Made by a program: the position numbers and the translations under genes. Below are positions 4,114 to 50,789 of a stretch of DNA of 53,176 nucleotides, in pieces. The first letter of the stretch is position 1; each line of letters starts with the position of its first letter. Below the pieces are notes generated by a model. The model was not told the DNA's origin, ran no database searches, and saw nothing but the letters and a program-made list of their open reading frames with translations. The DNA lies in the IMG/VR virus record IMGVR_UViG_3300049172_000079, positions 1 to 53,176 of that record; one strand, 5' to 3'. The DNA comes from a virus. Its lineage: Duplodnaviria > Caudoviricetes.

Positions 4114-4282
4114 CAGGTGGGTTCCTTTCGTGCGGCCCTCTGTGGGGCCGGGAGTCCGGGTGGTGGTTCGGGTAGGTCGCGGGCCCGCCACGGGGCGTGT
4201 GTGGAGCAGCGGGGCCCGCAGGGGTAGGGGCGGACGGGCCCGCCATGCGCCGCGGGGATGTCGCAGACGGGCCCCTCAGCGG

Positions 4283-7538: not shown

Positions 7539-7600
7539 GTGGTCTCCTGAGCGGGGCCGCCCCGCACTGCCCGCGGGGCGGCCGTCTGCTGGGTGCGGGC

Positions 7601-9869: not shown

Positions 9870-10093
9870 GGGGTCTCCTCGGTGGTCGGGTAGTCGAAGG
9901 CGGGGGTGGTGGCGTCGGGGTCGGCGTCGTAGAGGAGGTGCCGGTACTCGGCTGCCTCGCCCGCCGTGGCGTGTCCGGTGGGCCAGTCGGGGTGCTCGAC
10001 CAGCCAGTGCGCGCGGTCGAGGCGCTCGGCGAGCCGCTCCTTCGCGGCCTGGCCCTGCTGCCGGACGACGAGGTCGTGCATGCGCTCGCTCAC
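9866..10093 (-). CDS. Hypothetical protein
   Basis: Coupled 75-aa ORF. Confidence 0.55.
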   Translation of the reverse strand: MSERMHDLVVRQQGQAAKERLAERLDRAHWLVEHPDWPTGHATAGEAAEYRHLLYDADPDATTPAFDYPTTEETP

Positions 10094-10824: not shown

Positions 10825-11195
10825 GCCGTCCTCCGCTCCTGCGCCGGGACGGGGCGGGGCGCAGTGAGTTCGGCGGTGGCGTCGCGCATCTGCCGGAGCC
10901 CGGTGGCGTACACCTCGATCCGGCCGTCGCCCGCGTACTGCTCCAGCAGCGTCTGCATCCGCGTGTCGAACTCGTGCCTCGCGTGGGAGTCGCGGCCTTG
11001 GTGTTGTGCCGACAGGGCCAGTTGGTGCATGTCGGCGAACTCCTCGCCGAAGCCCTCCGGGTCCTCCGCCGCCGACTGGAACAGCTCGACGAACACGGCG
11101 CGGATGAGGAACGTCGAGATGTCGATGTCGACGCCGTTGTCGGTGGGGCGGAGGGTGACGGGGATCGGTGCGTCGATCCGGTAGTTCTGGTTCAT
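10821..11195 (-). CDS. Hypothetical protein
   Basis: Start MNQNYRID with GGGAG RBS; coupled. Confidence 0.6.
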   Translation of the reverse strand: MNQNYRIDAPIPVTLRPTDNGVDIDISTFLIRAVFVELFQSAAEDPEGFGEEFADMHQLALSAQHQGRDSHARHEFDTRMQTLLEQYAGDGRIEVYATGLRQMRDATAELTAPRPVPAQERRTA

Positions 11196-13210: not shown

Positions 13211-13727
13211 GGCGCCCGAGCACGGCACCCCCCAGCCGCCGCCCGAGGCAGACCTCATCCGCCTCGCACGGCAAGCGCGCGGCATGAGCCCAGAGGAAGC
13301 TGCGGACCGGACCCCAATCCGGATCAAGGGCTTCCGCTGGCGGCAGATTGAGAACGGCTACAAGGGCAAGCCCGGCACCTCGGACGAGGTGAAAGGCCCG
13401 GACAAGACCATCGCCCACATGGCGCACACCGTTGGCGTCACCTCCGCCCGGCTCGCCGAGTACCGCCCCAAGGCGGCGGCGATCCTGCGTGAGATCGAGC
13501 TGCAGCAAGTGGAGCGGTCCGACTCCCTCCCGGACCCGCTGGGCAACCTGACCTCGGATCGGCAGCGCATCATCCTCGACATGATCGCGGAGCTACCGCC
13601 CGCAGACCGTGCGCCCGCGTTGCGGCGTCTCGCCGAGCGCGTGGAGGGAGGCGAGTTGGACACCCCGGAGCAGGCGTCGGCGCCGCCAGTTCGCGGTGTT
13701 GACCAGCGGCATCCGCGCACTGGATAG
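13209..13727 (+). CDS. Immunity repressor (XRE-like HTH)
   Basis: LIRLARQARGMSPEEAA...RWRQIENG; divergent from cro and co-oriented with int. Confidence 0.7.
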   Translation: MAPEHGTPQPPPEADLIRLARQARGMSPEEAADRTPIRIKGFRWRQIENGYKGKPGTSDEVKGPDKTIAHMAHTVGVTSARLAEYRPKAAAILREIELQQVERSDSLPDPLGNLTSDRQRIILDMIAELPPADRAPALRRLAERVEGGELDTPEQASAPPVRGVDQRHPRTG

Positions 13728-13869
13728 GGATAACGTCGGATAGTAACGTTTCAGCCACGATCCGCGTTTACGGTCGTGACTCAGGGCAACTCGGGGGGCA
13801 CCGTGTGTACCCCGCACATTCACGCCGACATGTACGGAGACCGAGACCCACCGTGTACAGGGGACGAGA

Positions 13870-14760
13870 ATGAGCTGGATCGTTCTCGCGGCTGGGCTCG
13901 GCGTCGCTAACTTCATCGCGGTTGTGCTGCTCTTCCGGCGGCTGAGGCGTGACCTCGGTCGGCAGCTGCGCGACATGCGTGCCGAGCGCAACAGCGAACT
14001 GATACTGCACGCCCTGCGGGACGTGCCCGAACAACGAGAGCAGGCGGCTCAGGTCGCCAACGGAAGCGGAGGGACCGAACCGTCACCCGGCGGCCCGCAA
14101 CCGGTCCGACGCAAGCGGCACCTGGGGCTGTTCATCGGGGGCGGTGTCGCGGCACTCGCCGCAACGCTCAGCCACGCATTGCGGGAAGCCTGGCAAACCC
14201 AGCGATGGCAGCTGATAGGAACCGCGGCGGGGGTGGCCGCAGCCGCCGCGACCACCGTGCTCCTTCTGGCTTATCAGCCGTGGGAGGACGGTGACAGCCA
14301 CGCCCCGCCATCCTCCGCACCGACGGCGGAGCCGCCTGTCACCCGCCCACCCGGCTACACCCAGCCGCCGCCCGACAGCACGCGGCCCAGCGAGCCGACG
14401 TCCAGTGCCAGCCCGCCACCATCGCGGAGCGGGCCGGAGCCGAACGGCAGCGCCACGCCCAGCGAGTCCGCGTCTACGCGACCGCCGGCAACCACATCGC
14501 GGGTGCCCAGCGTCGAGTCTTCCGGACGGTCGTCGGTGCCACCGCCGCCACCAGACAGGCAGTCGCCACCAGACAGGGTGCCGCCACCAGGCGGCGAGCC
14601 GCCGTCCACGGCGCCCGAGCCGCCACCCGCAACGCCCACCACGCCACCGCCAACAGGCAAGCAGCCACCACCGCCACACGCCCCAGCCCACTGCGCCAGC
14701 CTCACCGTTCCGCCTGTGCTCAGCATCGGGTTGTGCATCCTCGGCCGGGGCGCTGGCTGA
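13870..14760 (+). CDS. Membrane protein with Pro/Ser/Thr-rich C-terminus
   Basis: Three hydrophobic segments, a long P/S/T tract and a terminal C-x10-C. Confidence 0.65.
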   Translation: MSWIVLAAGLGVANFIAVVLLFRRLRRDLGRQLRDMRAERNSELILHALRDVPEQREQAAQVANGSGGTEPSPGGPQPVRRKRHLGLFIGGGVAALAATLSHALREAWQTQRWQLIGTAAGVAAAAATTVLLLAYQPWEDGDSHAPPSSAPTAEPPVTRPPGYTQPPPDSTRPSEPTSSASPPPSRSGPEPNGSATPSESASTRPPATTSRVPSVESSGRSSVPPPPPDRQSPPDRVPPPGGEPPSTAPEPPPATPTTPPPTGKQPPPPHAPAHCASLTVPPVLSIGLCILGRGAG

Positions 14761-14776
14761 AACAGAGAGGGGAACA

Positions 14777-16018
14777 GTGGCAGAGATCAAGAAGGTCGTG
14801 CTGGGTAGCGGCAAGGTCCGCTACCGCACGGTCATCGACATTGGCCATGAGCCGAAGAAGGACAAGGTCACCGGTGAGGTGATCACCAACCCGGTGACCG
14901 GTAAGCCGGTGATGAAGCGCCTTCAGCTCACCATCACCAAGGACAAGAAGAAGGATGTAGAGGCTGAAGTCGCCCGCATCCGCGGGCAGATGGCCGCTGG
15001 GACGTACATCGCCAAGAGTGACATCACCGTGGCGGAGTGGCTGGATGAGTGGCTTCGGATGAAGGCCAGGGACATCGAAGCGACATCCATTCACGGCTAC
15101 CGGAAGTCGCTGGTCCACATCTACAGCATGCTGGGGCACGTCCGCCTCCAGGAGCTGAGCGAGGACATGGTGCAGGACTGCGTCGACCGCATGGTGACGC
15201 AGGGGAGGCGCAGAAGCGGCACGCCAGGCACAAGGCTGGCGGTGAGCACTGTTCAGCACGCCATCGACCGGTTCAGGCAGGCCCTGGCCCGGGCGGTCAC
15301 GCGGAAGCTGATCCCGGAGAACCCCGCGAAGTTCGTGCGGGTCTCCCTCGTCGACCGGAAGGCGGACAAGCGGGAGCGGCGGCGTGAGAAGCCGTGGACC
15401 GTGGCCGAAGTGCAGCTGTTCATCAAGGGCATCCAGGACGACCGGCTACACGCCCCGCTCCTGATGAGCCTGATGGGCCTGCGGCCGGCCGAGGTCTGCG
15501 GGCTGCGGTGGACTGACGTCGACCTCACGCTCGGCACCCTTGAGACGGCCATCACTCGCACGATGGTTTCCAACAAGACGGTGGTGGAGAAGGACGCCAA
15601 GACGGAAGCCGGTGAGCGCGTCCTGCCGCTGCCTCAGGGGGTATGGGAGGCGCTGCGGAGGTTCAAGGCCCGGCAGGCCGCCGAGAAGCTGGCGGCCGGC
15701 GAGGCCTACACCGACAGTGGCCTCGTGGTCGTGGACGAGCTCGGGGTGCCGGTGAACACTCGGCAGTTGCGTGAGCAGCACGCGTATCGGTTGATGGCCG
15801 ACCTGGGTCTACGCAAGGTGCGCCTGTACGACGCCCGGCACTCGTGTCTGACGTACCTCGCGAACAAGGGGGTGTTGGATCACATCTTGGCGGCGTGGGC
15901 CGGGCATACGAATGCGGGCTTCACGAAGAAGAAGTACGTCCACCCGGATGTTGAGGATCTGCGTTCGGCTGCTGCGGTGTGGGATGGCTTCCACGGTGGC
16001 GAGACGGCGCGGTCGTGA
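14777..16018 (+). CDS. int: Tyrosine integrase
   Basis: GLRPAE, KT, RLYDARH, WAGH, KKY catalytic motifs; N-terminal TVAEWLDEWL. Confidence 0.95.
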   Translation: MAEIKKVVLGSGKVRYRTVIDIGHEPKKDKVTGEVITNPVTGKPVMKRLQLTITKDKKKDVEAEVARIRGQMAAGTYIAKSDITVAEWLDEWLRMKARDIEATSIHGYRKSLVHIYSMLGHVRLQELSEDMVQDCVDRMVTQGRRRSGTPGTRLAVSTVQHAIDRFRQALARAVTRKLIPENPAKFVRVSLVDRKADKRERRREKPWTVAEVQLFIKGIQDDRLHAPLLMSLMGLRPAEVCGLRWTDVDLTLGTLETAITRTMVSNKTVVEKDAKTEAGERVLPLPQGVWEALRRFKARQAAEKLAAGEAYTDSGLVVVDELGVPVNTRQLREQHAYRLMADLGLRKVRLYDARHSCLTYLANKGVLDHILAAWAGHTNAGFTKKKYVHPDVEDLRSAAAVWDGFHGGETARS

Positions 16019-16214
16019 GAGATTGTGAGATGTAACCGGCTTCGGGGTGCCCTATATGGGCTCTGACCTGGGCTGCACGGTTCGGTCGTAGAACCATGTG
16101 CCGACTCTAGCGGGCGGCAACTGTGACAACGAGTGCCCGGTCCACCAATGGCGCCACCCGTTTGGCGGCCCCCGGCAGCCGTCTCACACCCAGCGTGTGA
16201 GATGTGTGTGAGAC
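16014..16214. other. Putative attP with GTGAGA arm-type sites flanking a core region
   Basis: GTGAGA twice at 16015-16029; GTCTCACAC, GTGTGAGAT and GTGTGAGAC at 16181-16214; immediately after the int stop. Confidence 0.6.
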
Positions 16215-16238
16215 GGCTACCCGCCGGAGCATGAGGGA

Positions 16239-16278
16239 GGCCCCGTCCCTCCGCCACCTTCGGCGGAGGGACGGGGCC
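16239..16278. terminator. Perfect 17-bp stem-loop
   Basis: GGCCCCGTCCCTCCGCC-ACCTTC-GGCGGAGGGACGGGGCC. Confidence 0.65.
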
Positions 16279-16500
16279 CGTGGAGCCCGTCTCGTCGTCG
16301 TCTTCCGGATCGTCTCCGAGACGGGCCGACCCGCCCCAGTCGCAGCTTCCGGACCGCGACAGGGCGGGAGCTTGTGAGCACCGGCAGAGATCAGCCTGGC
16401 CGCGTCAAGTGAATGGCGCATTTCTGTCGTGTGCCCATGATCGCTAGATTTACCCACCCAGGTAAAGACCTACCGGCCAAGATCATCTACTTGTGGTCGG

Positions 16501-16734
16501 GTGCCACTCGACCCCATGCCCGACTGGGTGCCAGAGCGCCGCCGGGAAATCGGGGAACGCATCCGCACCAACCGCCGCCACGCCGGCCTCTCCCAGCTTC
16601 AGTTAGGTGAACGCGTCGGCCGCGACCACAAGACGATCCACCGGTACGAGACCGCGCAGCGCGCCCCGTCCCTCACCGACCTGCTCCTCATCGCCGACGT
16701 CCTCGGCGTCCCGCTCGCCGACCTCGTGAGGTGA
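16501..16734 (+). CDS. Small XRE HTH regulator with a TTA codon
   Basis: IRTNRRHAGLSQLQLGERVGRDHKTIHRYE; in-frame TTA at 16603-16605. Confidence 0.85.
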   Translation: MPLDPMPDWVPERRREIGERIRTNRRHAGLSQLQLGERVGRDHKTIHRYETAQRAPSLTDLLLIADVLGVPLADLVR

Positions 16735-16756
16735 GGAGGAGGCGCCGCCCGTCGAC

Positions 16757-17875
16757 TCACCAGCGGATCGTCTGCCCCTCCGGGGTGACGGTGACGATGA
16801 ACTCCTCCAGCGCCGGTGCGCCGGCCTTCACCCAACGGCCGAACTGCTCCTCCACGGCGTCCCACAGAGGCTCCGGTCCGCCCTGCCGGACGAGCCACCG
16901 GCCGCTGTCCTGGTACACCGCGGCCCATGAGCCGGTGTCGACGTCGACCAGGACGTCCTCTGTGTGCCCGTCCCGCTGCATCGTCAGGCGCTGGGCGCCT
17001 GGCACGGCGAACTGCACGACGAACCGGGAGGTCCAGTTGTTCAGCACCTCGGCCCCGGTCTGGGTCTCGCGTTCCTTGCCGGCGTCGAGGTCGGGAAGTA
17101 GGCCGAGCGGCGGCGGCATGTGTGGGCGGGCGAGCATGAAGGACACGGCCCCGCCCAGCAGCGGCCCGGACGCTGTGCCGTCCTGGTGGACTGTGAGGCG
17201 TGCGAGTTCGGATGATCCGAGCCATCCGCCGACCGTCGCCAGGATCAGGCCGCCCGGCCGGGTCTGCTCGACCCACGCCATGGGCACCGTGCGCACGCCG
17301 CAGGTCGCGATGACCCGGTCGTAGGGGGCGCCCGCGCCGTGGCCGAGGAGGCCGTCGCCTGTGACGAGCGTCGGATACGTGCCGAGGTGGCCGAGGGCCG
17401 CCCGGGCCCGCGATGCGACCCAGGCGTCGTACTCGATCGAGGTGACGCACTCGTCACCGAGCCGCGCGCAGAGCAGGGCAGTCGAGTAGCCGGTGCCGGT
17501 GCCGATCTCCAGCACCTTGTGCCCGTCTTCGGCCTGGAGGTCCTCGAGCATGCGCAGCACGAGGGAGGGCAGGGTGCTGGAGCTGGTCGGCTCGCGCGTG
17601 ATCCGGCCGCGCAGGTCCTCGGGCACGATCGTGCCGGCGATCTGGGTCACCAGTGACTCGTCGGTGTAGCAGCCTTCCAGCCAGTCCGGGTCATCTTCCC
17701 GGATGGGCTGCCACGCGGTGAAGTCCGTGCCGACCGCCCGCCGGAAGTACCCGCCGCGTAGGAACTCGTGCCGGGGGACGGTTTCGGCGGCGTGCTTCCA
17801 CGGCGCCGTGCGCAGGCTGCCGCTGGCGGTCATCTTGTCGAGGAGCTGCCTGTGGAGCTGTTCTTGATCGGTCAC
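16757..17875 (-). CDS. tgmC: ATP-grasp peptide system methyltransferase (PIMT-like, aspartimide-forming)
   Basis: VPRHEF, SSSTLPS, VLEIGTGTGY, GDG..G, PYDRVIATC; coupled to the ATP-grasp gene. Confidence 0.9.
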   Translation of the reverse strand: MTDQEQLHRQLLDKMTASGSLRTAPWKHAAETVPRHEFLRGGYFRRAVGTDFTAWQPIREDDPDWLEGCYTDESLVTQIAGTIVPEDLRGRITREPTSSSTLPSLVLRMLEDLQAEDGHKVLEIGTGTGYSTALLCARLGDECVTSIEYDAWVASRARAALGHLGTYPTLVTGDGLLGHGAGAPYDRVIATCGVRTVPMAWVEQTRPGGLILATVGGWLGSSELARLTVHQDGTASGPLLGGAVSFMLARPHMPPPLGLLPDLDAGKERETQTGAEVLNNWTSRFVVQFAVPGAQRLTMQRDGHTEDVLVDVDTGSWAAVYQDSGRWLVRQGGPEPLWDAVEEQFGRWVKAGAPALEEFIVTVTPEGQTIRW

Positions 17876-18819
17876 GGTGTCCTCTCCAGAAGGTCGGCCA
17901 GGGCCGCGCACATGGGCAGGCCGGTCTCGTCCTCCAGCCAGTGCCACTGGCCGGAGGGGTTGCACTCCAGGAACCACCATCGGCCGTCCTCGCCGAGGGC
18001 AAAGTCGAAAGCCCCGAAAACGAGCTTGAAGCGGTTCATGTAGCGGTGGAGCGCCGGCCGGATTCCGGGCGGCGCCTCGACGGGTGTGTAGGTCAGGCGG
18101 CTGTAGTCGATGCGCCAGTCGAGGAGGCCGGAGTCGATGCGGACGCAGAACACTTCGCTGCCGATGACGGTCACCCGCACGTCGGCGACCTTCGGGACGC
18201 GCTGCTGGAACAGATGCGCCGTACCGGCCACCGCGTCGTCGATGTCCGCCTCGGACACCTCGGCGACCTTCACGGCGGACGAGACGCCGTCGACTCGGTA
18301 CACCGGGTTGCTCAGTGGCTTGTAGATGACCGAGCCGTGCGCCTTGATGAACTCGCGGGCAGCGTCGGGACTGGACGTGATGAGGGTGGGCGGCAGCAGG
18401 AACCCGGCACCAGCGGCCGCGGCCAGGCCGGACGGCTTGAATTCCGCGTCGCCGATGCGGTGCGGGTGGTTGACGTAGAGGCAGTCGGGCAGCGAGGCCA
18501 GGACCCCGCCGAGCCCGTACCGGGCCTGGGTGAGGGCGAACCGGGCGTCCTGCTCGTCGAGGTGCGGGAACGCGAAGCCGGTCGGCCGGCGGTAGTACAG
18601 GGCGCGCACGTTCGCGAGGTCCGCGGTGCGGGAGGGCGTGAGGAGACGGCCCTGTAGGCCGTGCTCGGTGATCTCGGCCTCAACCGACAGTGATGCGGGG
18701 AAGTCCCCCGGGTCGAGCCGCACGACCGGGACGCCCCGGCCGTGCAGCTCGCTGATCACCACGTCGGCGGTGGGGTCGTGCAGGCTGGTGACGACCAACA
18801 CCGGACGCGGATCAGTCAC
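17872..18819 (-). CDS. tgmB: ATP-grasp ribosomal peptide maturase (graspetide ligase)
   Basis: DPTADVV, YYRRP, AEFKP, PPTLITS, IYKP, FQQRVPK..DVRVTVIG, DWR, FGAFDF, FLECNPSGQW. Confidence 0.93.
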   Translation of the reverse strand: MTDPRPVLVVTSLHDPTADVVISELHGRGVPVVRLDPGDFPASLSVEAEITEHGLQGRLLTPSRTADLANVRALYYRRPTGFAFPHLDEQDARFALTQARYGLGGVLASLPDCLYVNHPHRIGDAEFKPSGLAAAAGAGFLLPPTLITSSPDAAREFIKAHGSVIYKPLSNPVYRVDGVSSAVKVAEVSEADIDDAVAGTAHLFQQRVPKVADVRVTVIGSEVFCVRIDSGLLDWRIDYSRLTYTPVEAPPGIRPALHRYMNRFKLVFGAFDFALGEDGRWWFLECNPSGQWHWLEDETGLPMCAALADLLERTP

Positions 18820-19103
18820 TGGTCGCTGTCGCTCCCGCTATCGGTGTCCCCGCCGCCCTGGCCGTCCGGGCTGGTGCCCGTCGACGGGCTCGTGCCGGTG
18901 GATGTGCCGTGCTTGCCCATCTCCAGCACCTGGCCGGCGCCGTCGTAGAACACGGCGGTCTGCGTGGCCGGGTCCAGCTCGGCCCGGGCGGCGGGCGCCA
19001 TGGTCGGGTAGGGGGCCATGCGGCCGAGACCCCACGGGCGGGCGGTGACGAGGCCCTGCGGGATGGCCGGGCTGGTCGGCATGCGATCGGAGTGGGCGAA
19101 CAT
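18816..19103 (-). CDS. tgmA: Graspetide precursor peptide
   Basis: AAGGAG RBS; leader RPWG and LDPATQT; core GTSTGTSPSTGTSPDGQGGGDTDSGSDSDQ. Confidence 0.9.
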   Translation of the reverse strand: MFAHSDRMPTSPAIPQGLVTARPWGLGRMAPYPTMAPAARAELDPATQTAVFYDGAGQVLEMGKHGTSTGTSPSTGTSPDGQGGGDTDSGSDSDQ

Positions 19104-19197
19104 ACCTCTCCTTCATGTCGTCGTGGTGGAGCGTGTAGACCCGCCCCGGGCCGGACCGTCCAAGGTGAGCGGCCCGAGGCGGGAGTCTTGGGGCAGG

Positions 19198-19359
19198 TCA
19201 GGTGCTGCGGCGTGCCTGCCGGTACTCCGCGGTCAGTCGGTCTCTGGTCTTGCAGGGGAGGTTGCGGTTCGCGCCCTGGGCGTCGATTGCCCGGCAGGTC
19301 GGGCAGGTCAGGCAGTGGTCCCACAGGGCGGCATGCTCGGGCGTCTCGGTGAGGATCAT
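19198..19359 (-). CDS. Small Cys/His-rich protein
   Basis: HCLTCPTC...C; coupled to the upstream gene. Confidence 0.55.
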   Translation of the reverse strand: MILTETPEHAALWDHCLTCPTCRAIDAQGANRNLPCKTRDRLTAEYRQARRST

Positions 19360-19694
19360 CGGTGCACCTCCAGCGCGAGGCGGCGCAGGGCGTGCCGGGT
19401 GTCGCACAGGATGGGGTTGTCGACGCACTGCTCGCAGGTGTTGGCGTGCGCGCCGTATGTGCGAAGCGCCGCAGCGCGGACGCAGTCAGGGCATCCGCGG
19501 GGAAAGAGGGTCACCCCGCCAGGCCCGGGCCGCTCACCGAGGTCGACAGCTGTCTCGATGGTGAGCCGAGTCTGGCACCACACGCAGGCCGCCCCGCGGG
19601 CCTGTAACGCCGACAGGCCGGGCGACTTGGGGAGGGGCAGCAGGCCTGGTGCGTCGACATCAGCGCTGCTGCTGGTGCGTGTCTCCCCTGGCAC
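19356..19694 (-). CDS. Cys-rich hypothetical protein with a TTA codon
   Basis: GGAGG RBS before GTG; CVWC, CPDC, H..TC..C; TTA at 19607-19605. Confidence 0.65.
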   Translation of the reverse strand: MPGETRTSSSADVDAPGLLPLPKSPGLSALQARGAACVWCQTRLTIETAVDLGERPGPGGVTLFPRGCPDCVRAAALRTYGAHANTCEQCVDNPILCDTRHALRRLALEVHR

Positions 19695-19760
19695 GAGGGC
19701 CTCCACGGTCGCGGTGATCCGTCTCACACCAACGACCGTAGGAGCGGGCAACAGGCGAAA

Positions 19761-19780
19761 CGCTCACAGATCTGTGAGCG
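19761..19780. promoter_or_regulatory. Perfect 20-bp palindrome CGCTCACAGATCTGTGAGCG (putative operator)
   Basis: Exact palindrome plus an extra TGTGAGCG half-site at 19781; upstream of a minus-strand TACGGT -10-like box (19735-19740). Confidence 0.7.
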
Positions 19781-19792
19781 TGTGAGCGTCAG

Positions 19793-20977
19793 CTACAGGC
19801 CGACCCAAGCCGCCATGTGGTTCAGCGTGTCCGGCGTCCTCCGTGCCAGGTGCACCAGCCCGCTGATCGTCTCTCGGGCACCCGGGTGGTACCGGGTCTG
19901 TTCCGGCGCCGCGTGCCGGGCATCAACCAACGACCGCAACGCCGCCTCGGTGTACCCGGTCTCCATCTCCGTGCGGGCCCGGTCGATGAAGAAGTGCGCG
20001 CGCCTGCTGGCAGCAAGCGACGGCGGAAGGTTGATCTTGCGGGCCTGCTTCAGCGCCGCGTCGTAGTGCCGCATCTCCACAGCCGCCGACATCCGGTGCA
20101 GCGCCACGTTGGTCGGCCCGAACGACAGCCAGTGGACGCCGGAGGCGTCACCGATCCTCTTCGCGATCTGCCGGGCTTCCGAGATGTGGCTGACGACGGT
20201 GCTCGTCTGCCGGGCCCGGGCCGCGATGACGGAGGCGCCGAGATGCAGTTGCCCGGTCACTGCGCAGGCTTCACGGGTCTGCTCGGCCTGCGCGACGGTG
20301 GTGTGCCCGGACGTGATGAGACGCTGGCCGATTCCGTACTCGCCCTCCCGGAAGTACACCAACGCCCGCATGTACTGGCGGACCGCTGCGATACATGGGT
20401 CCGAGGCCCGCTCGGCAGCCCAGCCCATACGGTCCAACGCGACGGCGGCGAGGTCGTAGTAGCCGAGCTTCACGCTGATGTCGTGCGCGGTTCGGTACGT
20501 CGAGGCGAGCGCCTGCCACAGCCTCGTCGATGGAGTGTCCCAGGCCGTGTGAGTCAGCTCGGCGATCACCCCCGGGAGCGCGCGGGCGGCGTTACGCAGG
20601 TGGGTGGCGCGCACCTCTGCGCACAGCTTGTCGGCTGCGGCGATGAGCTCGGCCGCCGGCCGCACGCTCAGTTCCGGATTCACTCCAAGGTCGTACAGAT
20701 CAAGGGCTTCGCGGATGGGGCGTACCAGCTCGGCGAGCCGGTCGCGCTGCAATTCGGTCACGTAGGGCTGTCCCGTCAGGACGGTGACGTCGACCTTGAG
20801 GGCGTGCGCGACGGCGGCGATGAAGTCGGCGGTCGCGGGCCGGGCTCCGCACTCCACTTGGTTGAGCAGGCTGTACGAGTAGGGGAGGCGGTCGGCGAGC
20901 TCGCGTTGTGTGAGCCTGGCCAGTCTGCGTTGTTCCCTGATGCGGGTACCCGTGTGGTCGTCGTCGAGGTTGGGCAT
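19793..20977 (-). CDS. XRE-family regulator with large helical C-terminal domain
   Basis: GTRIREQRRLARLTQRELA...LLNQVECG; C-terminal FGPTNV..H and APEQTRYHP; GAGGAG RBS. Confidence 0.88.
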   Translation of the reverse strand: MPNLDDDHTGTRIREQRRLARLTQRELADRLPYSYSLLNQVECGARPATADFIAAVAHALKVDVTVLTGQPYVTELQRDRLAELVRPIREALDLYDLGVNPELSVRPAAELIAAADKLCAEVRATHLRNAARALPGVIAELTHTAWDTPSTRLWQALASTYRTAHDISVKLGYYDLAAVALDRMGWAAERASDPCIAAVRQYMRALVYFREGEYGIGQRLITSGHTTVAQAEQTREACAVTGQLHLGASVIAARARQTSTVVSHISEARQIAKRIGDASGVHWLSFGPTNVALHRMSAAVEMRHYDAALKQARKINLPPSLAASRRAHFFIDRARTEMETGYTEAALRSLVDARHAAPEQTRYHPGARETISGLVHLARRTPDTLNHMAAWVGL

Positions 20978-21096
20978 ACTGGTCTCCTCGTTCCTTGCAG
21001 CCACTTGGAACGGTACCCGTGCTCAGGCGCGCGGGGCAGGCGTCCGCCCCCGACTCCTTCCGGAGCGGGGGCGGTTGCATGTGATCGGATGGCGCC

Positions 21097-21642
21097 ATGA
21101 CCTCTCGTGTGCTGTACCTCTTTGGTTCCGCGGCCCCTCCTGTCTTCGACATTGCGTCCGTGATTGAGGACGCGCAGCGGCGCGGCTTCGACGTGTGTCT
21201 CGGTCTCACCCCGACCGCGAACCGCTGGCTCGGCGGCACGCTCCCCGAGCTGGAGCGCCTTACCGGGCATCCGGTGCGGTCCGAGTACAAGCTGCCCGGT
21301 GAGCCCGACGTGTGGCCCAAGGCCGACGTCATCTTGGTGGCGCCGGCCACCTTCAACACGGTGAACGCGTGGGCGCTCGGGCTGACGCACGACTTCGTTG
21401 TCGGTGTCGTCGCGGAAGGGGTCGGCAAGGGCATCCCGATGGTGGCGATGCCGTGCGTGAACGCGGCGTACGTGCAGCATCGGCAGTTCGAGCGGAGCGT
21501 GGGCGAGCTGCGGGAGATGGGCGTGGAGGTGCTTTACGGAGAGGGCGGCTTCGTGCCGAACCAGCCGGGCCAAGGCCAGCCGAAGGAGTACCCGTGGCGT
21601 CTCGCGCTTGATGCGGTCGAGCGGGTTGTGGCGGGCCCGTAG
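21097..21642 (+). CDS. HFCD-family flavoprotein
   Basis: LFGSAA, TPTA, DVILVAPATFNTVN, PCVN. Confidence 0.85.
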   Translation: MTSRVLYLFGSAAPPVFDIASVIEDAQRRGFDVCLGLTPTANRWLGGTLPELERLTGHPVRSEYKLPGEPDVWPKADVILVAPATFNTVNAWALGLTHDFVVGVVAEGVGKGIPMVAMPCVNAAYVQHRQFERSVGELREMGVEVLYGEGGFVPNQPGQGQPKEYPWRLALDAVERVVAGP

Positions 21643-21651
21643 TCTTGATCC

Positions 21652-21843
21652 ATGTCCCCCGATTCCGTGACCGCTGGTTCCGTGCGGTCTGCTGACGACC
21701 TGAACCGGGCGATCCGCGCGTTGTGGCTGGGCCCGGGCGGGCATCCCGCGGTTCGGCTCGATGACGAGCGGCGGGAGGAGTACGCGCGGTTGTGCGCCGA
21801 GCTCCGGGCCGTTGAACGCGGGGATGTCACCACCGCGGCATGA
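21652..21843 (+). CDS. Small hypothetical protein
   Basis: TAGTCT-N6-ATG leaderless start; RSADDLNRAIRALW. Confidence 0.6.
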   Translation: MSPDSVTAGSVRSADDLNRAIRALWLGPGGHPAVRLDDERREEYARLCAELRAVERGDVTTAA

Positions 21844-22092
21844 CGGAGGGCCGTTGCCCGTCGGCTCCGGCCCTCCTATCCACTAGCCGCGTTCGCGAGC
21901 CAAACGGTGGACACGTCCGGCGCACGGGCGTCTCAGGCCAGGCGGCTACCACCAGCATGGCAGAGGGCCCCGCTCGCCGTAGCGAACGAGGCCCTCACGC
22001 GCGGCCGTCCCGGTACAGTGAGCGGGCGCCCGGGTCCTTGGTGGGTCCCCAAGCGAACGCCCCCGGGGTGGTGCCCGGGGGCGCCTTGCTGC

Positions 22093-22299
22093 TCAGCCGA
22101 GGATGTGCGCGAGGTACCAGACCCCAAACCCGGTCCAGGCCACGGCGAACGCGATCGCCCCCGCCTTGGTGTGCACCCGGAACCAGCGGCGGGTCGACTC
22201 GCTGAGCGTGTCGCCCTCCCGTGCGTTGCGGAGCGCGTACACCTCGAACCCGGCACCCGCCAGGATCAGGCCGCCCCACACCGCGTCCCCGGCGTTCAC
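22093..22299 (-). CDS. Small two-TM membrane protein (lysis region)
   Basis: Two hydrophobic segments; coupled. Confidence 0.6.
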   Translation of the reverse strand: MNAGDAVWGGLILAGAGFEVYALRNAREGDTLSESTRRWFRVHTKAGAIAFAVAWTGFGVWYLAHILG

Positions 22300-22547
22300 C
22301 GGCCTGCCGCCTGCCAGAGGGCGACACCCAGCGAGCCCATGGCCGTCAGCACCGCCACGGCGGGCAGCGGCCACCGGTTCTTCTCGATCGCGTCGAGCCG
22401 CGCCTCGTGATCGTCCAGCTTCTTGTCCGTCTGCTCGCCGCGCTGCACGAGTAGAGCGAGCTGCCCATCCACCCTGATGAACCCCGACTCGCAGGTCCCC
22501 CTCAGCCGCTCCAACTCCAGCGCGACAGACGTCTCCGGCGGCGTCAC
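22296..22547 (-). CDS. Coiled-coil protein with C-terminal TM (lysis accessory)
   Basis: Coupled to the holin; ...EARLDAIEKNRWP then a TM segment. Confidence 0.65.
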   Translation of the reverse strand: MTPPETSVALELERLRGTCESGFIRVDGQLALLVQRGEQTDKKLDDHEARLDAIEKNRWPLPAVAVLTAMGSLGVALWQAAGR

Positions 22548-22783
22548 TCCCGCACCGCCGTGTCACCGCCGTCGGTCCGCAGCCACGACGGCAGCAGCCC
22601 CTGTACCGACGGCAGCGCCATCACCCGGGCGAACCCGCCAGCCACCGCCAGCGCACCCGCCACCCACGGCAGGGCCTCCGGCACCCCGGACGCGGACACG
22701 ATCCCCGGCAGCGCCACGGCGGTACCGACCGCGGTCTGGAGCACCGTGCGTGCTACGCGCTTCGATTCATCCTTCATGGTCAT
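22544..22783 (-). CDS. Holin
   Basis: KRVARTVLQT, two TM segments, LLPSWLR; directly after the endolysin. Confidence 0.7.
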   Translation of the reverse strand: MTMKDESKRVARTVLQTAVGTAVALPGIVSASGVPEALPWVAGALAVAGGFARVMALPSVQGLLPSWLRTDGGDTAVRE

Positions 22784-23505
22784 CCCTTCTCCAGCGCAGT
22801 CACGCGCTTCTCCAGCGAGGACAGACGGTCCTCGACACTCGGTACCGGCGTCGGCTTCGGAGCCAGCGGCTTGGGCGCCGGCGGCTTCACCACGCCCGGC
22901 GACCACGACGCGGCGTGCTTCAGCCGCTCGGCGACACGGCTGCGCAGCTTGCCCATGTCCACACCCGCCGGATCCGGCTTGCCCGGCTGCCACTCCTTGT
23001 GGGCGATGACCGACTCGGCATGCCATCCGTGGGCGCGGCAGAGCGCGGCCGAGACCCGCACCATCGCCTCGACCTGGGCCGCTGGCCAGTCCTGCCCGCC
23101 ACCCGTGTTGATGGCTTCGAAGCCGTAGAAGTGCCGGTTGCCGTCGGTGTTCGCCTCGTTGTCGACGGGCAGCTTGGTCTCCGCCACGACAGCGTCGAGG
23201 ACGTCGTCATCCCCGCTCCCGGCGTGGTTGGCGCGGCCGTAGCCGACGAGATGCACGGTGCCGGAGCGGTCGATGACGCCGTGGCACAGCGGGCCGGGCA
23301 GTCCGGAGTAGCCCTTACGGCACAGCTCGACCATGCCCTTCTCCGTGGAGTACGGGCCGGTGTGATGCTGCATGATGCCGTTCACCGGGCCCCACGGCCC
23401 TTTGCTGTTTCGGTTGTGGGTCTCCCAGGCGCCAACCTCAAAGACCTTCACGCCCTCAGCGCGAAGGGCGGCGGCGAACCGGGCAGCCGTCAGTGGTGTG
23501 GCCAT
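22780..23505 (-). CDS. Endolysin, N-acetylmuramoyl-L-alanine amidase (Amidase_2)
   Basis: GIMQHHT, LPGPLCH, GRANHAG, FYGFE, IAHKEW...KPDP. Confidence 0.92.
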   Translation of the reverse strand: MATPLTAARFAAALRAEGVKVFEVGAWETHNRNSKGPWGPVNGIMQHHTGPYSTEKGMVELCRKGYSGLPGPLCHGVIDRSGTVHLVGYGRANHAGSGDDDVLDAVVAETKLPVDNEANTDGNRHFYGFEAINTGGGQDWPAAQVEAMVRVSAALCRAHGWHAESVIAHKEWQPGKPDPAGVDMGKLRSRVAERLKHAASWSPGVVKPPAPKPLAPKPTPVPSVEDRLSSLEKRVTALEKG

Positions 23506-23508
23506 GGC

Positions 23509-23778
23509 CTACTCTCCCGTCTCTGTGATCTGCCGTTGCACGGTCGTCGTCTGCTCGAACCGCAGGTCCAGCGACCAGCCGTCCGCCTTCAGCGCGTCGT
23601 GCAGGACGCCGTACCAGCTGAGGAGGTCCTCGTCCGTGGGCGTCGGCCCCTCCACGATCACCGACGCCTGCAACGACATCTGCGCCGAACCCCCCGGGAT
23701 CCCCTTCTGGGCCGTGATCAGCAGCGGCGTGCGGTGCGAGAACACGGCCGGTGTCGGATCTGTCCACTTCAAGGCCAT
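23509..23778 (-). CDS. Hypothetical protein
   Basis: 89-aa ORF with RBS between tail and lysis genes. Confidence 0.6.
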   Translation of the reverse strand: MALKWTDPTPAVFSHRTPLLITAQKGIPGGSAQMSLQASVIVEGPTPTDEDLLSWYGVLHDALKADGWSLDLRFEQTTTVQRQITETGE

Positions 23779-23791
23779 CGTGTGCCCCCTT

Positions 23792-24331
23792 CTATGCGAG
23801 TCGTCGGATGTGCATGGAGGAACCGGCCCCCACGCGGGTGGCGGTGGCGTTGGACGTGAACTGCGCCCACATCAGGGCGAGCGTCCCGGCTGTGCTGCTG
23901 GTTGTGACGATGCCCTCTTCGATCGCCAGGGCCTGGTTGGTGGCGGAGGCGCGGGTGCCGTACCGGACTGTCGTGCCGAAGCCGTGGACGCCCGAGCGGT
24001 GGTAGCCGCCGTTCGCGGCCTGCGCCGTCGCGACGCCGGATGAGGCGAGCTCGTACGCGGCGCCGTTCGCGGACCGGTTCCCAGTGGAGCCGGTGGGGAC
24101 CGCCCACTGCGTTTGGAACTGCGGGGTCTCGGTCGCGGCGAAGTGGATGTACATGGTGACGTGGTAGACGGCGTTCGCCTCCAACGTCGCCGTCAAGTCG
24201 GTGTCGTTGGCGAGGGTCGTCGTGGACGCCCGGTCCTCGTTGGTGTTCTTCACGATGACGTCGGGCAGCATCGCTTGCAGCAGCGTGCCGGTGAGGCGCT
24301 GGCCCGCGTAGATCGACGGGTAACGAGACAC
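23792..24331 (-). CDS. Minor tail / tail-tip protein
   Basis: YAGQRLTGTLL N-terminus; beta-rich; follows the large tail gene. Confidence 0.65.
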   Translation of the reverse strand: MSRYPSIYAGQRLTGTLLQAMLPDVIVKNTNEDRASTTTLANDTDLTATLEANAVYHVTMYIHFAATETPQFQTQWAVPTGSTGNRSANGAAYELASSGVATAQAANGGYHRSGVHGFGTTVRYGTRASATNQALAIEEGIVTTSSTAGTLALMWAQFTSNATATRVGAGSSMHIRRLA

Positions 24332-24340
24332 GCGAGCCTC

Positions 24341-27300
24341 CTACAGGGATGTGTATGCGGGGTGGGCCAGCGCCACCGCGGCGCCGGAAGAGTGGGTCTT
24401 GGAGATGCCGTTCATGGAGCGGACGACGGTCATGGTCTGCGGATTGATCAACTCGAAGTTCTGGAAGCGCATGCTCAACCCGGCGTTGGTGTTGCCGGTG
24501 TTCCGGAAGCTGCGGGTGCCAATGTTCGCGGCTGCGGTCAGGTCGGTGTCGGTGACGGAGATCCGCCACACGTCCGGCTCCTGGTCCGTCGTCCGCCAGA
24601 TCTTCGTGCGGATCGTCGACCCGAACGCCTGCAACCTCACCCGCACATAGGACCCGGCGACGTGGGTGATCGGCGTGGTGTACGTGCCTAGCTGCGTCTC
24701 AACGCCCGCCACCCGCTTCCGCAGAGTGATCGCGATGGTGTTCGACGTGGTGAAGTCGACCCGCGCCGAGTAGTGGTTGTTGTTGTCGGCGGCGCGGACG
24801 ATCGGCCCCGTGAACAGGCTCGCCCCGGTAGCGAGCGCCGACACCGCACAGTCGACGACCAGGTCGACGTCCGCCGACGGCGCCGGCTGCAGCGTGAGGT
24901 GCGCGATGCCCGTGGACGGCTGCGCGACCGAGCCGACGTTCGGGGCGGTGCTGTAGTCCGCGGCCGTGCCCACCACCGTCCAGGCGCCGCCGGACTCCGC
25001 CGTACCCCAGCCCGCCGCCGTCGTCCGGTCGAAGGTGTCGTAGACGGCCGGGGTGCAGGCGTCGACGCGCATGGTCTCGCCGCCCACCCGCACCTCGAAC
25101 GGGAACTCCTGCGGCAGCTCCGTCGAGATGGTGGGTCGGAGGGTGACCATGTCCGACCAGAGGATCTCGTCCGGCGTGGGGAAGTCGGGCACGGTCGGTG
25201 AGCCGTTTCCGAACGCGGCACCGGCCGGGGCGGTAGCGGTGGTCTCGAACCACGTCCACTCGTCAGCGACGAGCGCCTGCCCGTTCGCCGAGGTGGAAAG
25301 GTAGTTGCCGCCCGCGTCGAACCAGTTCAGGTTGAGGTCCACGCTGCGGGTGGTCTCGGACATCTGCCAGCCGGACAGGGTGTAGTCGCGGCCCTCGGTG
25401 ACGGGCACCATCGTGGCGCCCACGTTGGGGAACTCGGCGACGCCATCCGGGGTGAGCTTGAGCGACCACTCGCCACCGAAGGGCGCGTTACCCGGGGTTG
25501 GGCCGCGCTCGGCGGTGCAGCCGTTGCCCGTCCAGCCGGTCAGGTCGACCTCGAAGTCGTAGTTCGTGATGAGCGACGGCGCCGCCTGGACCCACACGGG
25601 GCCCGTCGTGGTCCGTACGCCGACCGCCGTCTCGGACGTGGTGAGGTCCTCGACGAGGACACTGCCGTCGGTGTCCACTCGGTCGTACACGCCGTCCGAG
25701 CCGAGCGCCTCCACTGCCACATGCCATGGCCCGTACGGCGTCGCGTTGAAGTCGATCGTCCACGTGAACTGGTCGAACACCTCGCTGTACCCCTGGACCA
25801 TGAGCTCGATCAGGTCCGGCGGCAGCCAGGACGGCGGGTTGGCGATGTCCATGCGGTCGCCGATGTCCACGCTGGTCGCGGCCTCGATCATGTGCGGGGC
25901 CGCCGCCAGATTCACCCGCACCACCGGGTAGCGGGTCTCATCCCACGTGCCGAGGTGCAGCAGCCAGCCGGCGTGCTCGCCGGTCTGCGCGTCCGTGTAC
26001 AGGCTGCGGGTCTGCGAGTCGTCGTAGCGGCCGACGCCGTTCGGCGGGGCCTGCGTCGACAGCGCCCCCGTGTCCAAGGTCCGGCGCGTCGACGAGCCGC
26101 CCGTGCGTTGCACGGTCCGGTCGTTGCGCACGGATTGGTCGTCGTCGACCGGGTCCAGCGGCGTGACGAGGCCGTCGTCGCCCGTGTAGTCCAACGTCAT
26201 GGCCGGGGCCTGGTTGTACATGCTGGGCCGATCCCGGAACCGGAATGCCGGGTACCAGTCGCGGGATTCGTGGAGGATGCCCTCGTCGGCGTCCGCCGCC
26301 TCCCGCATCAGATCGAGGATCGCCGACAGGCCCTGCGCGCCCATCTGCTCCTCGCTGATCGACGCGGCGAAGCAAGGCGTCAACTCCTCCACGCCAAGCC
26401 GGTACAGACGCTCTGACGTGACCTCACCGGCCCACGCGACCATCGCGCCGATCGTGTCCGCGAACGCCGAGTTGCTGCTGGCCACAGTGACATGACCAAG
26501 CGCCGTGCCGTTCAGCAGGCCGCTGAACCCGAGCCGCGCTTCGGTGGCCGCCCCGATCGTGTTCGCCGCCAAGGTCGTGGCGACGCCGCCGCTGACGATC
26601 TCCTCCAGGCTCGACTCGTCGACGTAGAACACGAACAGCGTCGCGTCCACATCGGCGCCGTCCTGCGTCAGCTCAACACCGATCTGGACGTTCTTCCCGT
26701 TGATCGCGACCGGGTCAAACCCCGTCGCGATGATCTGCGTACCGTCCGAGTCGTACGCCCGCAGGTCCAAGTCCCCAGCCGTGTTGATCCACACCGCCCA
26801 GCTGCGCGCCGTCCCCGTCGTGACGATCGTGAACAGCCTGTCCGTGCCCGTCACACCAGCCGCAGGGACCGCAGCGAAGAACCGCGTGAAGACGTAGTTG
26901 GTCGCCGTGTACGGGGCCACCGCCACCCGTGTCGTCCCGAACGAGAACGTCGGCAGCGGAGCAGACGCCGCCCAGCCCGAGTACGCCGCCGGAGCCACCC
27001 CACCCGACGACGGGATCACCATGGCGGGCTGACCGTCCAGGCCAGACGCGAAGCGAGTAGCGCCGCTCTCGTCCTCCATGGGCCAGTAGGAGACGATCCC
27101 CGTACGGCCGGCGTTGGTGAACTCGCGGAACATCGGAGACCGCGCCGGGCTGGCGCCTTGGGAGAGGCGCCGCATGATGCCGGATGCTTCGACGTTGCAG
27201 ACGACGTCGTGCTTGGTCTCCCAGCGGGTCGACCAGGACGAGACTTCGCCGACGAATCGGGTCCGCCGGTTGGTGATCTGGCTGTTGCCGCTCATGGTCC

Positions 27301-50774: not shown

Positions 50775-50789
50775 AGGGAGGATGTTGCC

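Follow-up and report, generated by a model that had tools for sequence, protein, structure and literature searches.

Graspimiditides, the aspartimidylated graspetides of 'group 13', are peptides such as amycolimiditide, albusimiditide, SsfA and fuscimiditide, and each is encoded by a precursor gene together with an ATP-grasp ligase and a C-terminally extended PIMT homologue. This three-gene layout defines the family, and a bioinformatic survey lists 1,083 biosynthetic gene clusters (BGCs) that have it (10.1101/2023.06.21.545981, section 5). The same section describes the precursors as having Thr/Ser donors, a loop with a conserved Asp-Xaa and Asp/Glu acceptors, and the survey's authors suggest that host proteases and transporters serve these pathways (10.1101/2023.06.21.545981). 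Over a thousand clusters have been found and the chemistry is well understood; the main open problem, as put in a 2026 review, is the link to biological function (PMC13001092). The word 'phage' does not occur in 10.1101/2023.06.21.545981, PMC13001092, PMC8939145 or PMC10787088, and the literature searched yielded no link between graspimiditides and phages.

The window analysed here, of 53,176 nucleotides, is a whole IMG/VR virus record that is labelled 'linear', comes from a metagenome-type collection and is rated 100% by CheckV. The three genes at 16757-19103 very probably form a functional graspimiditide set, carried as moron cargo by a complete temperate siphophage of Streptomyces, at the end nearest attP. 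All three, intact as an earlier note on this DNA had read them, are open reading frames (ORFs) of the minus strand with no internal stop, and all exceed the cut-offs of TIGR04186, TIGR04187 and TIGR04188, the curated NCBIfam families of the graspetide-methyltransferase trio. The precursor (18816-19103, 95 residues), whose ATG at 19103 is preceded by the Shine-Dalgarno sequence AAGGAGAGG, scores 90.8 bits against TIGR04186 and 67.2 bits against PF14408 (cut-off 25 for both). The ligase, or graspetide synthetase (17872-18819, 315 residues), matches TIGR04187 (SAV_5884) over its full length (residues 6-312; 432.6 bits, cut-off 350), carries the MvdD pre-ATP-grasp domain PF21068 (42.4 bits, cut-off 27) and has 9bou_A as its nearest solved structure (E 1.3e-48), with microviridin-type ligases next. 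The PIMT-like O-methyltransferase (16757-17875, 372 residues from the GTG at 17875) reaches 448.9 bits against TIGR04188 (cut-off 380) and 84.9 bits against the Pfam family PF01135 PCMT (cut-off 20.3). The longest ORF for this enzyme begins at 17980, and in it the PCMT domain occupies residues 129-268 and is followed by about 140 more. The translation shows the SAM-binding motif GTGTG and, near the C-terminus, WVKAGAP, which conforms to the WxxxGxP motif named for graspimiditide methyltransferases (PMC13001092). The GTG at 17875 rather than 17980 is likely to be the true start, since it overlaps the ligase stop as GTGA; an equivalent overlap joins the ligase GTG at 18819 to the stop of the precursor, so that the translational coupling proposed in the earlier note is borne out along the whole trio.

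The precursor contains no Cys. Its leader has the motifs PWGxxRMxPYP and TQT and its core the pattern HxTSTxTxxxTxTxxDGxxxxDxDxxxDxDQ, motifs shared by at least 90% of the 83 precursors in an alignment in which the Asp-Gly is likewise conserved. The conserved His, the Thr/Ser donors, the loop with its Asp-Gly and the Asp acceptors of the core agree with the published features, and the assignment to the fuscimiditide/amycolimiditide type, now named graspimiditides, fits; judged by its sequence, the encoded peptide is an ordinary member of that family. By extension from its characterised members, the conserved leader would be recognised by the ligase, which would form four Thr-to-Asp side-chain esters in register (T13-D22, T11-D24, T7-D28 and T5-D30, numbered from the conserved His, a register predicted from equal spacing alone) and so produce a stem-loop. 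The PIMT-like enzyme would then methylate the loop Asp of D16-G17, and this Asp would cyclise to the aspartimide.

The phage genome and its attachment site

The cluster is flanked on one side by head, tail and lysis genes and on the other by the integrase and by recombination and replication genes. Genes for the terminase, portal, protease, major head protein, tape measure and endolysin lie at 22780-42854, and those for RecT, an exonuclease, a WhiB-like protein and a replication initiator at 288-9869. The tyrosine integrase (14777-16018, plus strand) matches PF00589 (51 bits) and PF14659, and the lysis module (22093-23505, minus strand) consists of three small holin-like ORFs and an endolysin at 22780-23505 (phrog_880, E 2.4e-61; phrog_5225). 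Several HTH proteins are encoded, at 16501-16734, 19793-21004 and 50742-51332, and none of them stands out as the immunity repressor. A complete record with an integrase, virion and lysis modules and an attP agrees with the temperate lifestyle assumed in the earlier note. When 24 kb of the window was compared with GenBank phages by Megablast, about 1% was covered, in the endolysin region only, and by this comparison the phage is one without a close cultured relative among them.

The attP core, at 16093-16123 between integrase and cluster, has a 33-base match of 94% to an intergenic site in a Streptomyces genome (G267). In another genome (G170), contig C14 has a left flank that resembles G267 and a right flank that resembles the window, and thus presents a B-O-P' hybrid; a second junction in the same genome (contig C913) diverges beyond 16102, with a partner flank that does not correspond to the attB flank of G267. 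No tRNA that might serve as attB was found in the window or at the attB loci, and Rfam gave nothing at the attB loci. The cluster is therefore placed between attP and the lysis genes, which is the cargo position that had been claimed for it. A contig of 2092 bases from run X1 matches 14774-16865 with 0 differences, and thereby joins the integrase, attP, the small HTH gene and the end of the methyltransferase; it is an independent assembly, possibly of the same sample, as X1 may be the source. Misassembly at the island borders had been named as a way in which the claim could fail, and it is the left border that this contig upholds.

Three GC-rich hairpins (21845-21876, 21963-21996 and 22058-22083), inverted repeats with arms of 10-15 nt, separate the end of the late/lysis operon from the island and may be terminators. 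A terminator scan gave 2 sites against 1.7 expected, which is uninformative, and a sigma-70 promoter scan of 15900-23600 gave 0 sites, as expected from the GC content. Given the place of attP, the cluster would come to lie at the very end of the prophage after integration, with the hairpins between it and the late operon; position and hairpins suggest that lysogens would most likely express the cluster, as a conversion trait. None of the sequencing runs listed for this sequence is an RNA run.

Possible role of the peptide and distribution of the cluster

Searches of the island with Pfam and NCBIfam found no exporter, protease or immunity gene. The earlier note had concluded from this that the product may act inside the lysogen, a step that is not supported, because a three-gene layout lacking such genes is normal for the graspimiditide family and their absence is silent on an intracellular role. 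Our leading guess, offered tentatively, is that the peptide may shield the lysogen from attack by other phages. The analogy is with those lanthipeptide clusters of Streptomyces that contain a PIMT and act against phages. With more reserve still, graspimiditides at large might be intracellular anti-phage (superinfection-exclusion) peptides, their cassette traded among temperate Streptomyces phages and left behind in chromosomes as a portable defence; if true, this would be the first biological role for the aspartimide modification, parallel to that of the lanthipeptides.

It is rather unlikely that the product is extracellular, helping the lysogen to compete as a protease inhibitor or antibiotic that is released when the phage lyses its host or with the help of the host's own transporters and proteases. 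Such a role would be in keeping with a survey in which most prophage BGCs are bacteriocins (10.1101/2020.10.01.322628), with the action of microviridin-type graspetides as serine protease inhibitors and with the trimming of a related cross-linked precursor by spent medium of S. albus J1074 (both 10.1101/2023.06.21.545981), and the cluster does lie just downstream of the lysis genes and in the same direction. It is, however, set off from the late operon by the hairpins, neither an immunity nor an export gene accompanies it, and aspartimidylated RiPPs are described in the 2026 review as without connection yet to biological function (PMC13001092).

The defence proposed for the lysogen has also to be seen against the distribution of the cluster, which recurs in seven other IMG/VR contigs (L002-L007 and L104), two isolate-genome proviruses among them. 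L104, in which the trio is present and the context unclear, was added by a scan of IMG/VR with a 14-sequence alignment; L105 was left out of the count, having a ligase only (51% identical) and no methyltransferase or precursor homologue. The end of contig L007 cuts inside the ligase, the ligase frame of L003 is interrupted by a stop at codon 105, and the trio is intact in five of the six full-length IMG/VR relatives. One of the seven contigs is a provirus (G003) with 9 of the 55 window proteins in common; its trio is 86-90% identical, all else stays at or below 47%, and it has the cluster (239-2582) and the integrase (52567-53352) at opposite ends. The order lysis, regulator, cluster, integrase is repeated in L003 and L005 from IMG/VR and in the bacterial prophages L073 and L075, and in the latter two as well as in prophage L010 tail and/or lysis genes lie just upstream of the cluster. 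None of the 50,697 GenBank phage records holds a close ligase homologue, the best reaching 33% and 27% and both being non-Streptomyces.

Among bacterial genomes, tblastn located all three genes in 75 of 80 loci, some precursors having been missed by the ORF caller (54/86 loci). An integrase, lysis or tail marker lies within 10 kb of 8 of the 80 nearest bacterial copies and is absent from 72, and the full tail/lysis context is present in only three; the figure of eight is a lower bound, because the probes were proteins of these phages only, applied to 10 kb each side. By this census, of a kind that the earlier note had proposed as a check, phage carriage is a minority state of the cluster. Near-identical cassettes occupy two ordinary chromosomal contexts (L008/L009/L011 and L012/L026/L034/L042), neither of which has a phage gene within 10 kb. 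The phage copies are nested among a larger set of Streptomyces copies, and the phage-slot cassette occurs in two distant clades, in a tree of 79 rows from which L025, L037, L042, L057, L059 and L084 (partial) and L007 and L062 (one gene only) were dropped; as a quick LG+G4 tree with a midpoint root, it does not fix whether transfer ran from phage to chromosome or the other way. Values of dS are 0.20-0.41 for the cluster against 0.75-0.79 for a tail gene. The cassette very probably moves between unrelated temperate phages and chromosomal sites, and purifying selection keeps it.

The nested tree position, the two phage-free chromosomal contexts and the premature stop in L003 could also be read as marks of a neutral or selfish passenger, a small mobile cassette from Streptomyces chromosomes that sits in a cargo slot with no benefit to phage or lysogen. 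This is unlikely, since dN/dS across the phage copies is 0.14-0.38 in 15 of 15 comparisons, most full-length relatives retain an intact trio, and the same slot is kept in backbones that are otherwise nearly unshared and in both of the distant clades. Were the cassette neutral, the finding would amount only to a well-documented example of a moron.

Neighbouring genes of the island

In treating the trio as the cargo cluster, the earlier note was right as to the trio itself and too narrow as to the size of the island, as the trio is accompanied in some relatives by a pair of small Cys-rich ORFs, by genes for an XRE regulator and a flavoprotein, and by a small HTH gene. The last of these (16501-16734, plus strand) encodes an XRE-type HTH protein of 77 residues (PF13560, 53.9 bits), is convergent on the methyltransferase and is the final gene before attP; it has the same position in L002, L003, L004 and L010, with 42-92% identity. 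The shorter Cys-rich ORF (19198-19359, minus strand; 53 residues from the ATG at 19359) contains CxxCxxC, is coupled to the ORF upstream by an ATGA overlap and has cluster-adjacent homologues in L002, L003, L017 and L026 (79-89%). The other (19356-19751, minus strand; about 123-131 residues) has such homologues in L002, L003, L004, L006, L008, L011, L017 and L026 (47-88%). Neither belongs to a family found by Pfam, NCBIfam or PADLOC. They were considered and rejected as precursors of the cysimiditide type, whose hallmark is two CXXCXGXG motifs flanking the modified Asp (10.1101/2024.10.02.616296); the ORF at 19198-19359 has its CxxCxxC and one distant Cys and no CXXCXGXG.

The flavoprotein (21097-21642, plus strand; 181 residues) is HFCD/CoaC-like (PF02441, 31.3 bits), is divergent from the XRE gene and is followed by a 63-residue ORF at 21652-21843; its homologues accompany the cluster in L004, in L007 and at 10 of the 80 bacterial loci. 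It was set aside as a precursor-tailoring enzyme, because RiPP-pathway HFCD enzymes modify a Cys at the C-terminus and this precursor contains no Cys. The pairing of flavoprotein and XRE gene recurs beside the cluster.

The XRE-family regulator itself (19793-21004, minus strand; 403 residues) has an N-terminal HTH (PF13560, 32.9 bits), and tblastn places homologues next to the cluster, on its upstream side, in 6 of 6 IMG/VR and 26 of 80 bacterial loci. This recurrence, the TPR repeats of a related neighbour family and the histidine-kinase-like ATPase genes that are the upstream neighbour in 18 loci would suit a peptide signal read by the adjacent regulator, tuning lysis-lysogeny or host development in an arbitrium-like or WhiJ-like manner. 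We regard such a signal as quite improbable. Arbitrium systems consist of an HTH-TPR receptor and a gene for a short secreted signalling peptide. Pfam and NCBIfam detect in the window's regulator an HTH only, and neither a TPR nor a peptide-binding domain; genes for an export route are lacking; and the regulators are 24-45% identical at most loci against 60-90% for the trio, so regulator and trio are not tightly co-evolving. XRE regulators of this kind are, moreover, very numerous in Streptomyces genomes. It is barely credible that the cluster reached a viral contig through a faulty join with host DNA, or that a host island was miscalled as viral. The 'linear' metagenome-type record and the depth of the cluster region in runs X2-X4, far above that of the flanks and therefore a sign of many non-phage copies in soil, might point to such an artefact; against it stand the phage genes on either side, the adjacent attP, the 0-difference contig and the same arrangement in the seven other viral contigs, with their two isolate-genome proviruses, and in prophage L010.

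Comparison with known biosynthetic systems

The ligase shares its fold with the microviridin-type enzymes (MdnB/MdnC, MvdC/MvdD), matching TIGR04185/04184 at E 1e-42 to 1e-41 and the structures 5ig9 and 7m4s at E 1e-31 to 1e-33, but it falls far below the cut-offs of those families (146 against 425 bits; 142 against 475 bits). The present cluster has one ligase instead of two, a core without a lactam-forming Lys, a methyltransferase, and no GNAT or ABC transporter.

The cluster is a small one for a ribosomal peptide, borne by a temperate phage as accessory cargo, and in this it resembles the prophage-encoded BGCs with which phages have been said to weaponize their bacteria. In the main text of that survey these are mainly bacteriocins, the Streptomyces entry is only a type 3 PKS on phage ZL12, and 'ATP-grasp' and 'microviridin' do not occur (10.1101/2020.10.01.322628). 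An ester-cross-linked RiPP class would join a short list of actinophage biosynthetic clusters.

Closest in the activity suggested for it are the anti-phage class I lanthipeptides of Actinobacteria ('lanthiphages' or lanthivirins, such as coi of S. coelicolor), which are likewise Streptomyces RiPPs with a PF01135-type O-methyltransferase and no dedicated protease. Class I lanthipeptide BGCs with PF01135 protect Streptomyces against phages and turn up on prophages and plasmids at a higher frequency than do other lanthipeptide clusters (10.1101/2024.06.26.600839); they are reported to work intracellularly (10.1101/2024.06.26.600839; 10.64898/2026.08.26.747419). The two systems differ in that ATP-grasp esters are predicted here and LanB/LanC thioethers are formed there, and neither precursors nor core enzymes are homologous; the analogy rests on one shared accessory enzyme family. 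Compared with PADLOC, the island proteins gave only a generic methyltransferase-domain match to mad2 (47.8 bits) and HTH-domain matches.

The phage cargo slot, exchange between unrelated backbones and purifying selection together make phage-host or phage-phage conflict, or the fitness of the lysogen, worth examining, and the presence of the same set in otherwise unrelated phages offers a concrete route to testing what graspimiditides do. With the described graspimiditides the cluster shares the gene content, the NCBIfam families above cut-off, the WxxxGxP motif, an actinomycete host and the succession of conserved His, Thr/Ser donor stretch, Asp-Gly loop and Asp acceptor stretch. The cluster 1a motif described for albusimiditide is longer than the core found here (10.1101/2023.06.21.545981). 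Unlike those clusters, which reside in chromosomes, the present one is carried by a temperate phage and lies beside its attP.

The phage, its graspimiditide genes and the predicted peptide

The earlier reading of an intact trio is confirmed by Pfam and by NCBIfam, where all cut-offs are exceeded, and the three co-directional minus-strand ORFs contain no internal stops. They encode a precursor of 95 aa (18816-19103; PF14408, 67.2 bits; TIGR04186, 90.8 bits, cut-off 25), an ATP-grasp ligase of 315 aa (17872-18819; PF21068, 42.4 bits; TIGR04187, 432.6 bits, cut-off 350) and a PIMT-like methyltransferase of 372 aa (16757-17875; PF01135, 84.9 bits; TIGR04188, 448.9 bits, cut-off 380). A Shine-Dalgarno sequence lies 5' of the precursor ATG, and GTGA overlaps couple the precursor stop to the ligase GTG and the ligase stop to the methyltransferase GTG; because of the latter overlap, the methyltransferase ORF in its longest form (start at 17980) probably includes 35 codons too many. 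The closest solved structure to the ligase is 9bou_A (E 1.3e-48), with microviridin-type ligases next. [quoted passage not shown]

In an alignment of 83 precursors, comprising that of the window and relatives from the fetched loci, the features kept in at least 90% of the rows are the leader motifs PWGxxRMxPYP and TQT and, in the core, a His, a Thr/Ser-rich donor stretch, Pro-Asp-Gly, a Gly-rich loop and a C-terminal DxDxxxDxDQ. These core features match those described for graspimiditides (10.1101/2023.06.21.545981). In numbering that starts from the His, the spacing of the Thr donors (T5, T7, T11, T13) mirrors that of the Asp acceptors (D22, D24, D28, D30), with steps of 2, 4 and 2; on this basis and by the published 'equal spacing' rule four esters would form a stem, and the predicted aspartimide site, D16-G17, would lie in the loop. 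Such ester and aspartimide chemistry is what the phage-borne precursor would be expected to undergo, and the peptide is chemically an ordinary member of the graspimiditide family.

The carrier, with about 70% G+C, makes up an entire IMG/VR virus record (53,176 bases), where it is classed as linear, and has a CheckV completeness of 100%. Genes for terminase, portal, head protease, major head protein, head-tail adaptor, tape measure, a 1280-aa tail protein, endolysin and holin-like proteins fill the minus strand between 42854 and 22093; an exonuclease, RecT, a DnaQ-like exonuclease, HNH/WhiB-like proteins and a replication initiator occupy 9869 down to 288; and a tyrosine integrase is encoded on the plus strand at 14777-16018. 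The right arm has few assignable genes, an excisionase-like protein among them. Megablast against 50,697 GenBank phage records returned nothing beyond a short endolysin match to Streptomyces phages. The C-terminal domain (residues 1021-1279) of the 1280-aa tail protein (24341-28183) matches phrog_24476, annotated as a phosphodiesterase, and this protein may be a depolymerase of a cell-wall polymer. An ORF at 13870-14760, directly 5' of the integrase and overlapping the long reading of the integrase ORF, has a product with a membrane helix at its N terminus and then a long stretch rich in Pro, Ser and Thr; it could be another surface protein expressed by the prophage.

The island and the attachment site

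The interval from the holin-like genes to the precursor holds, on the plus strand, a 63-aa ORF and a gene for an HFCD-like flavoprotein, as well as a gene for a 403-aa XRE regulator; no transporter, protease or recognisable immunity protein was found among the island ORFs there. Two Cys-rich ORFs (19198-19751), coupled by an ATGA overlap, are directly upstream of the precursor; they have no family match in Pfam or NCBIfam, and the pair is 47-89% conserved beside the cluster in the nearest relatives, both phage-borne and chromosomal. Three GC-rich hairpins that separate the island from the late operon, and a further one immediately 5' of the precursor, are putative terminators. PADLOC gave nothing on the island beyond generic domain matches. 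The divergent pair of HFCD/CoaC-like flavoprotein and XRE regulator (19793-21843) recurs beside the trio in phage contigs (L004, L007) and bacterial loci (L037, L050-L056, L059, L062, L064, L087), the flavoprotein adjoining the cluster in 10 of 80 bacterial loci; the precursor contains no Cys by which its presence there might be explained.

The earlier note had placed the cluster between attP and the lysis genes, and this is correct, because the attP core can be mapped to 16093-16123, between the integrase and a small HTH gene. When the 482-base gap between these two genes was compared with 301 Streptomyces genomes, one genome (G267) gave a 33-base, 94% match at an intergenic site with no tRNA and no Rfam match, and a second (G170) gave a split match. 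In contig C14 of G170 the sequence is G267-like to the left of the core common to the alignments and window-like to its right, as judged by alignment the B-O-P' junction to be expected where a relative has integrated. The other G170 junction, in contig C913 (L106, locus ~565-720), follows the integrase-side arm of the window to 16102 and then continues into sequence unlike the other G267 flank; this site may hold a second element or have been rearranged. Related-phage contigs from soil runs X3 and X4 likewise end at 16102. In a lysogen, a 77-aa HTH gene is all that separates the cluster from host DNA. In run X1, where 92% of the sampled words occur and which is possibly the source sample of the window, a 2092-base contig agrees with 14774-16865 at every base. 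It links the integrase, through attP and the HTH gene, to the end of the methyltransferase gene, and all 30 depth bins across 13500-24500 are covered in that run.

Occurrence and probable exchange of the cassette in viruses and bacteria

The cluster recurs in unrelated phages. A ligase scan of IMG/VR yielded six contigs with ligases 71-93% identical, and two more came from a scan with an alignment of 14 sequences: L104 (83%), which has the trio, and L105. The latter (IMGVR_UViG_3300005614_000038, 139.8 kb), whose ligase is 51% identical to that of the window and in which no methyltransferase or precursor homologue was detectable, probably represents another type of graspetide on a 'viral' contig of very large size and is excluded from the count of carriers. 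Identity to the window in four contigs (L002, L003, L004, L006) is 84-94% for the trio, as against 34-47% for the neighbouring large tail protein. Two contigs are proviruses of isolate genomes, rated 100% complete. By tblastn the first (G003) matches 9 of 55 window proteins, the trio at 86-90% and all others at 47% or less, and its cluster (239-2582) lies distant from its integrase (52567-53352), the layout expected after integration through an attP between the two; the second (G004) matches 7 of 55, the trio at 44-71%, with the cluster flanked by a tail spike upstream and an integrase downstream. The L003 ligase (10001-10948) has an in-frame TGA at codon 105 beside an apparently intact precursor and methyltransferase, reflecting either a decaying copy or a sequencing error, and the cluster of L007 is incomplete, being cut by the contig end. 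The best ligase matches from GenBank phages come from an unannotated human-faecal 'Bacteriophage sp.' (MT835913.1, 8836-9777; 33%) and then from Leptospira phage LE1 (KF114876.1, 59114-60061; 27%); both are MvdD-like, with 97-98% of the query aligned, which suggests that graspetide-type ligases may occur in quite different phages.

In a scan of species-representative genomes, the best 80 of 109 bacterial relatives are 62-91% identical and belong nearly all to Streptomyces, with a few in Kitasatospora, Streptacidiphilus and Actinomadura; all three genes were found by tblastn in 75 of these 80 loci. The flanks show no overall synteny across loci, the commonest neighbour families at 86 loci being the XRE regulator (26), an unknown 171-aa protein (18), a histidine-kinase-like ATPase (18) and the flavoprotein (10). 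Phage or integrase markers lie within 10 kb at 8 of the 80 (L010, L028, L054, L069, L073, L075, L077, L084), a lower bound since the probes were proteins of these phages only. At L010, L073 and L075 the cluster is directly preceded by tail and/or lysis genes, and at L073 and L075 an integrase is also present downstream. The genome behind L010, like the one behind G003, is that of an isolate and represents a lysogen of a close relative. Chromosomal cassettes with trios 79-91% identical occupy two ordinary sites with no phage genes in reach, one between a methyltransferase gene and a LysR gene (L008, L009, L011) and one amid DoxX, VTT, PAP2 and ketopantoate-reductase genes (L012, L026, L034, L042). 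In soil runs X2-X4 the summed contig depth over 16800-19000 is tens to hundreds of times that of the flanking phage genes (146-453 versus 0-20 in X2), so that close homologues of the cassette are far commoner in soil than this phage.

When ligase and methyltransferase were combined in a quick maximum-likelihood tree of 79 rows (eight loci, being partial, were left out), the window grouped in a clade of 14 rows (support 96) that also holds four further IMG/VR copies, the L010 prophage and the chromosomal islets of both sites; provirus L005 and prophages L073 and L075 fall in the other half. At least two distant lineages of the cluster thus include phage-borne copies, the direction of transfer not being fixed by a tree rooted at the midpoint. 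Pairwise comparison of the window with L002, L003, L004, L006 and L010 gave dN/dS of 0.14-0.38 in 15 of 15 comparisons, covering all three genes, and the cassette is under purifying selection. Its dS is 0.20-0.41 against 0.75-0.79 for the tail gene, and the cassette is thus younger in these genomes than the divergence of their tail genes; this fits horizontal exchange among phages.

Novelty and possible function

The new aspect seems to be the carrier rather than the peptide. In the article texts, the word 'phage' does not occur in the graspimiditide survey (10.1101/2023.06.21.545981), the 2026 aspartimide review (PMC13001092) or the graspetide phylogenomics and pamtide papers (PMC8939145, PMC10787088), nor do 'ATP-grasp' and 'microviridin' in a survey of prophage biosynthetic gene clusters (10.1101/2020.10.01.322628), and searches combining graspetide and phage terms gave nothing on point; in the literature searched, carriage of graspimiditides by temperate Streptomyces phages is unreported. 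As an exchanged and selected cargo of these phages, the cassette offers a useful clue to the function of aspartimidylated graspetides.

Of the interpretation in the earlier note, the identity of the trio, its carriage by a phage and its place near attP stand, but the intracellular role that it argued from the missing exporter and protease does not follow. Three-gene clusters define the whole family in the graspimiditide survey, whose authors propose that host proteases and transporters serve them (10.1101/2023.06.21.545981), and the missing genes are therefore uninformative on the site of action. We infer that the cluster is expressed from the prophage. An extracellular competitive or inhibitory role of the peptide is unlikely; that the cluster is a neutral passenger is less likely still, and that the peptide is a signal is very improbable.

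Defence of the lysogen by the cluster is the leading, if tentative, possibility, argued by analogy. The best external lead for the function of the phage-borne trio is provided by actinobacterial class I lanthipeptide clusters with a PF01135 domain, which are reported to protect against phage through intracellular action on phage transcription and to be commoner on prophages and plasmids (10.1101/2024.06.26.600839; see also 10.64898/2026.08.26.747419).
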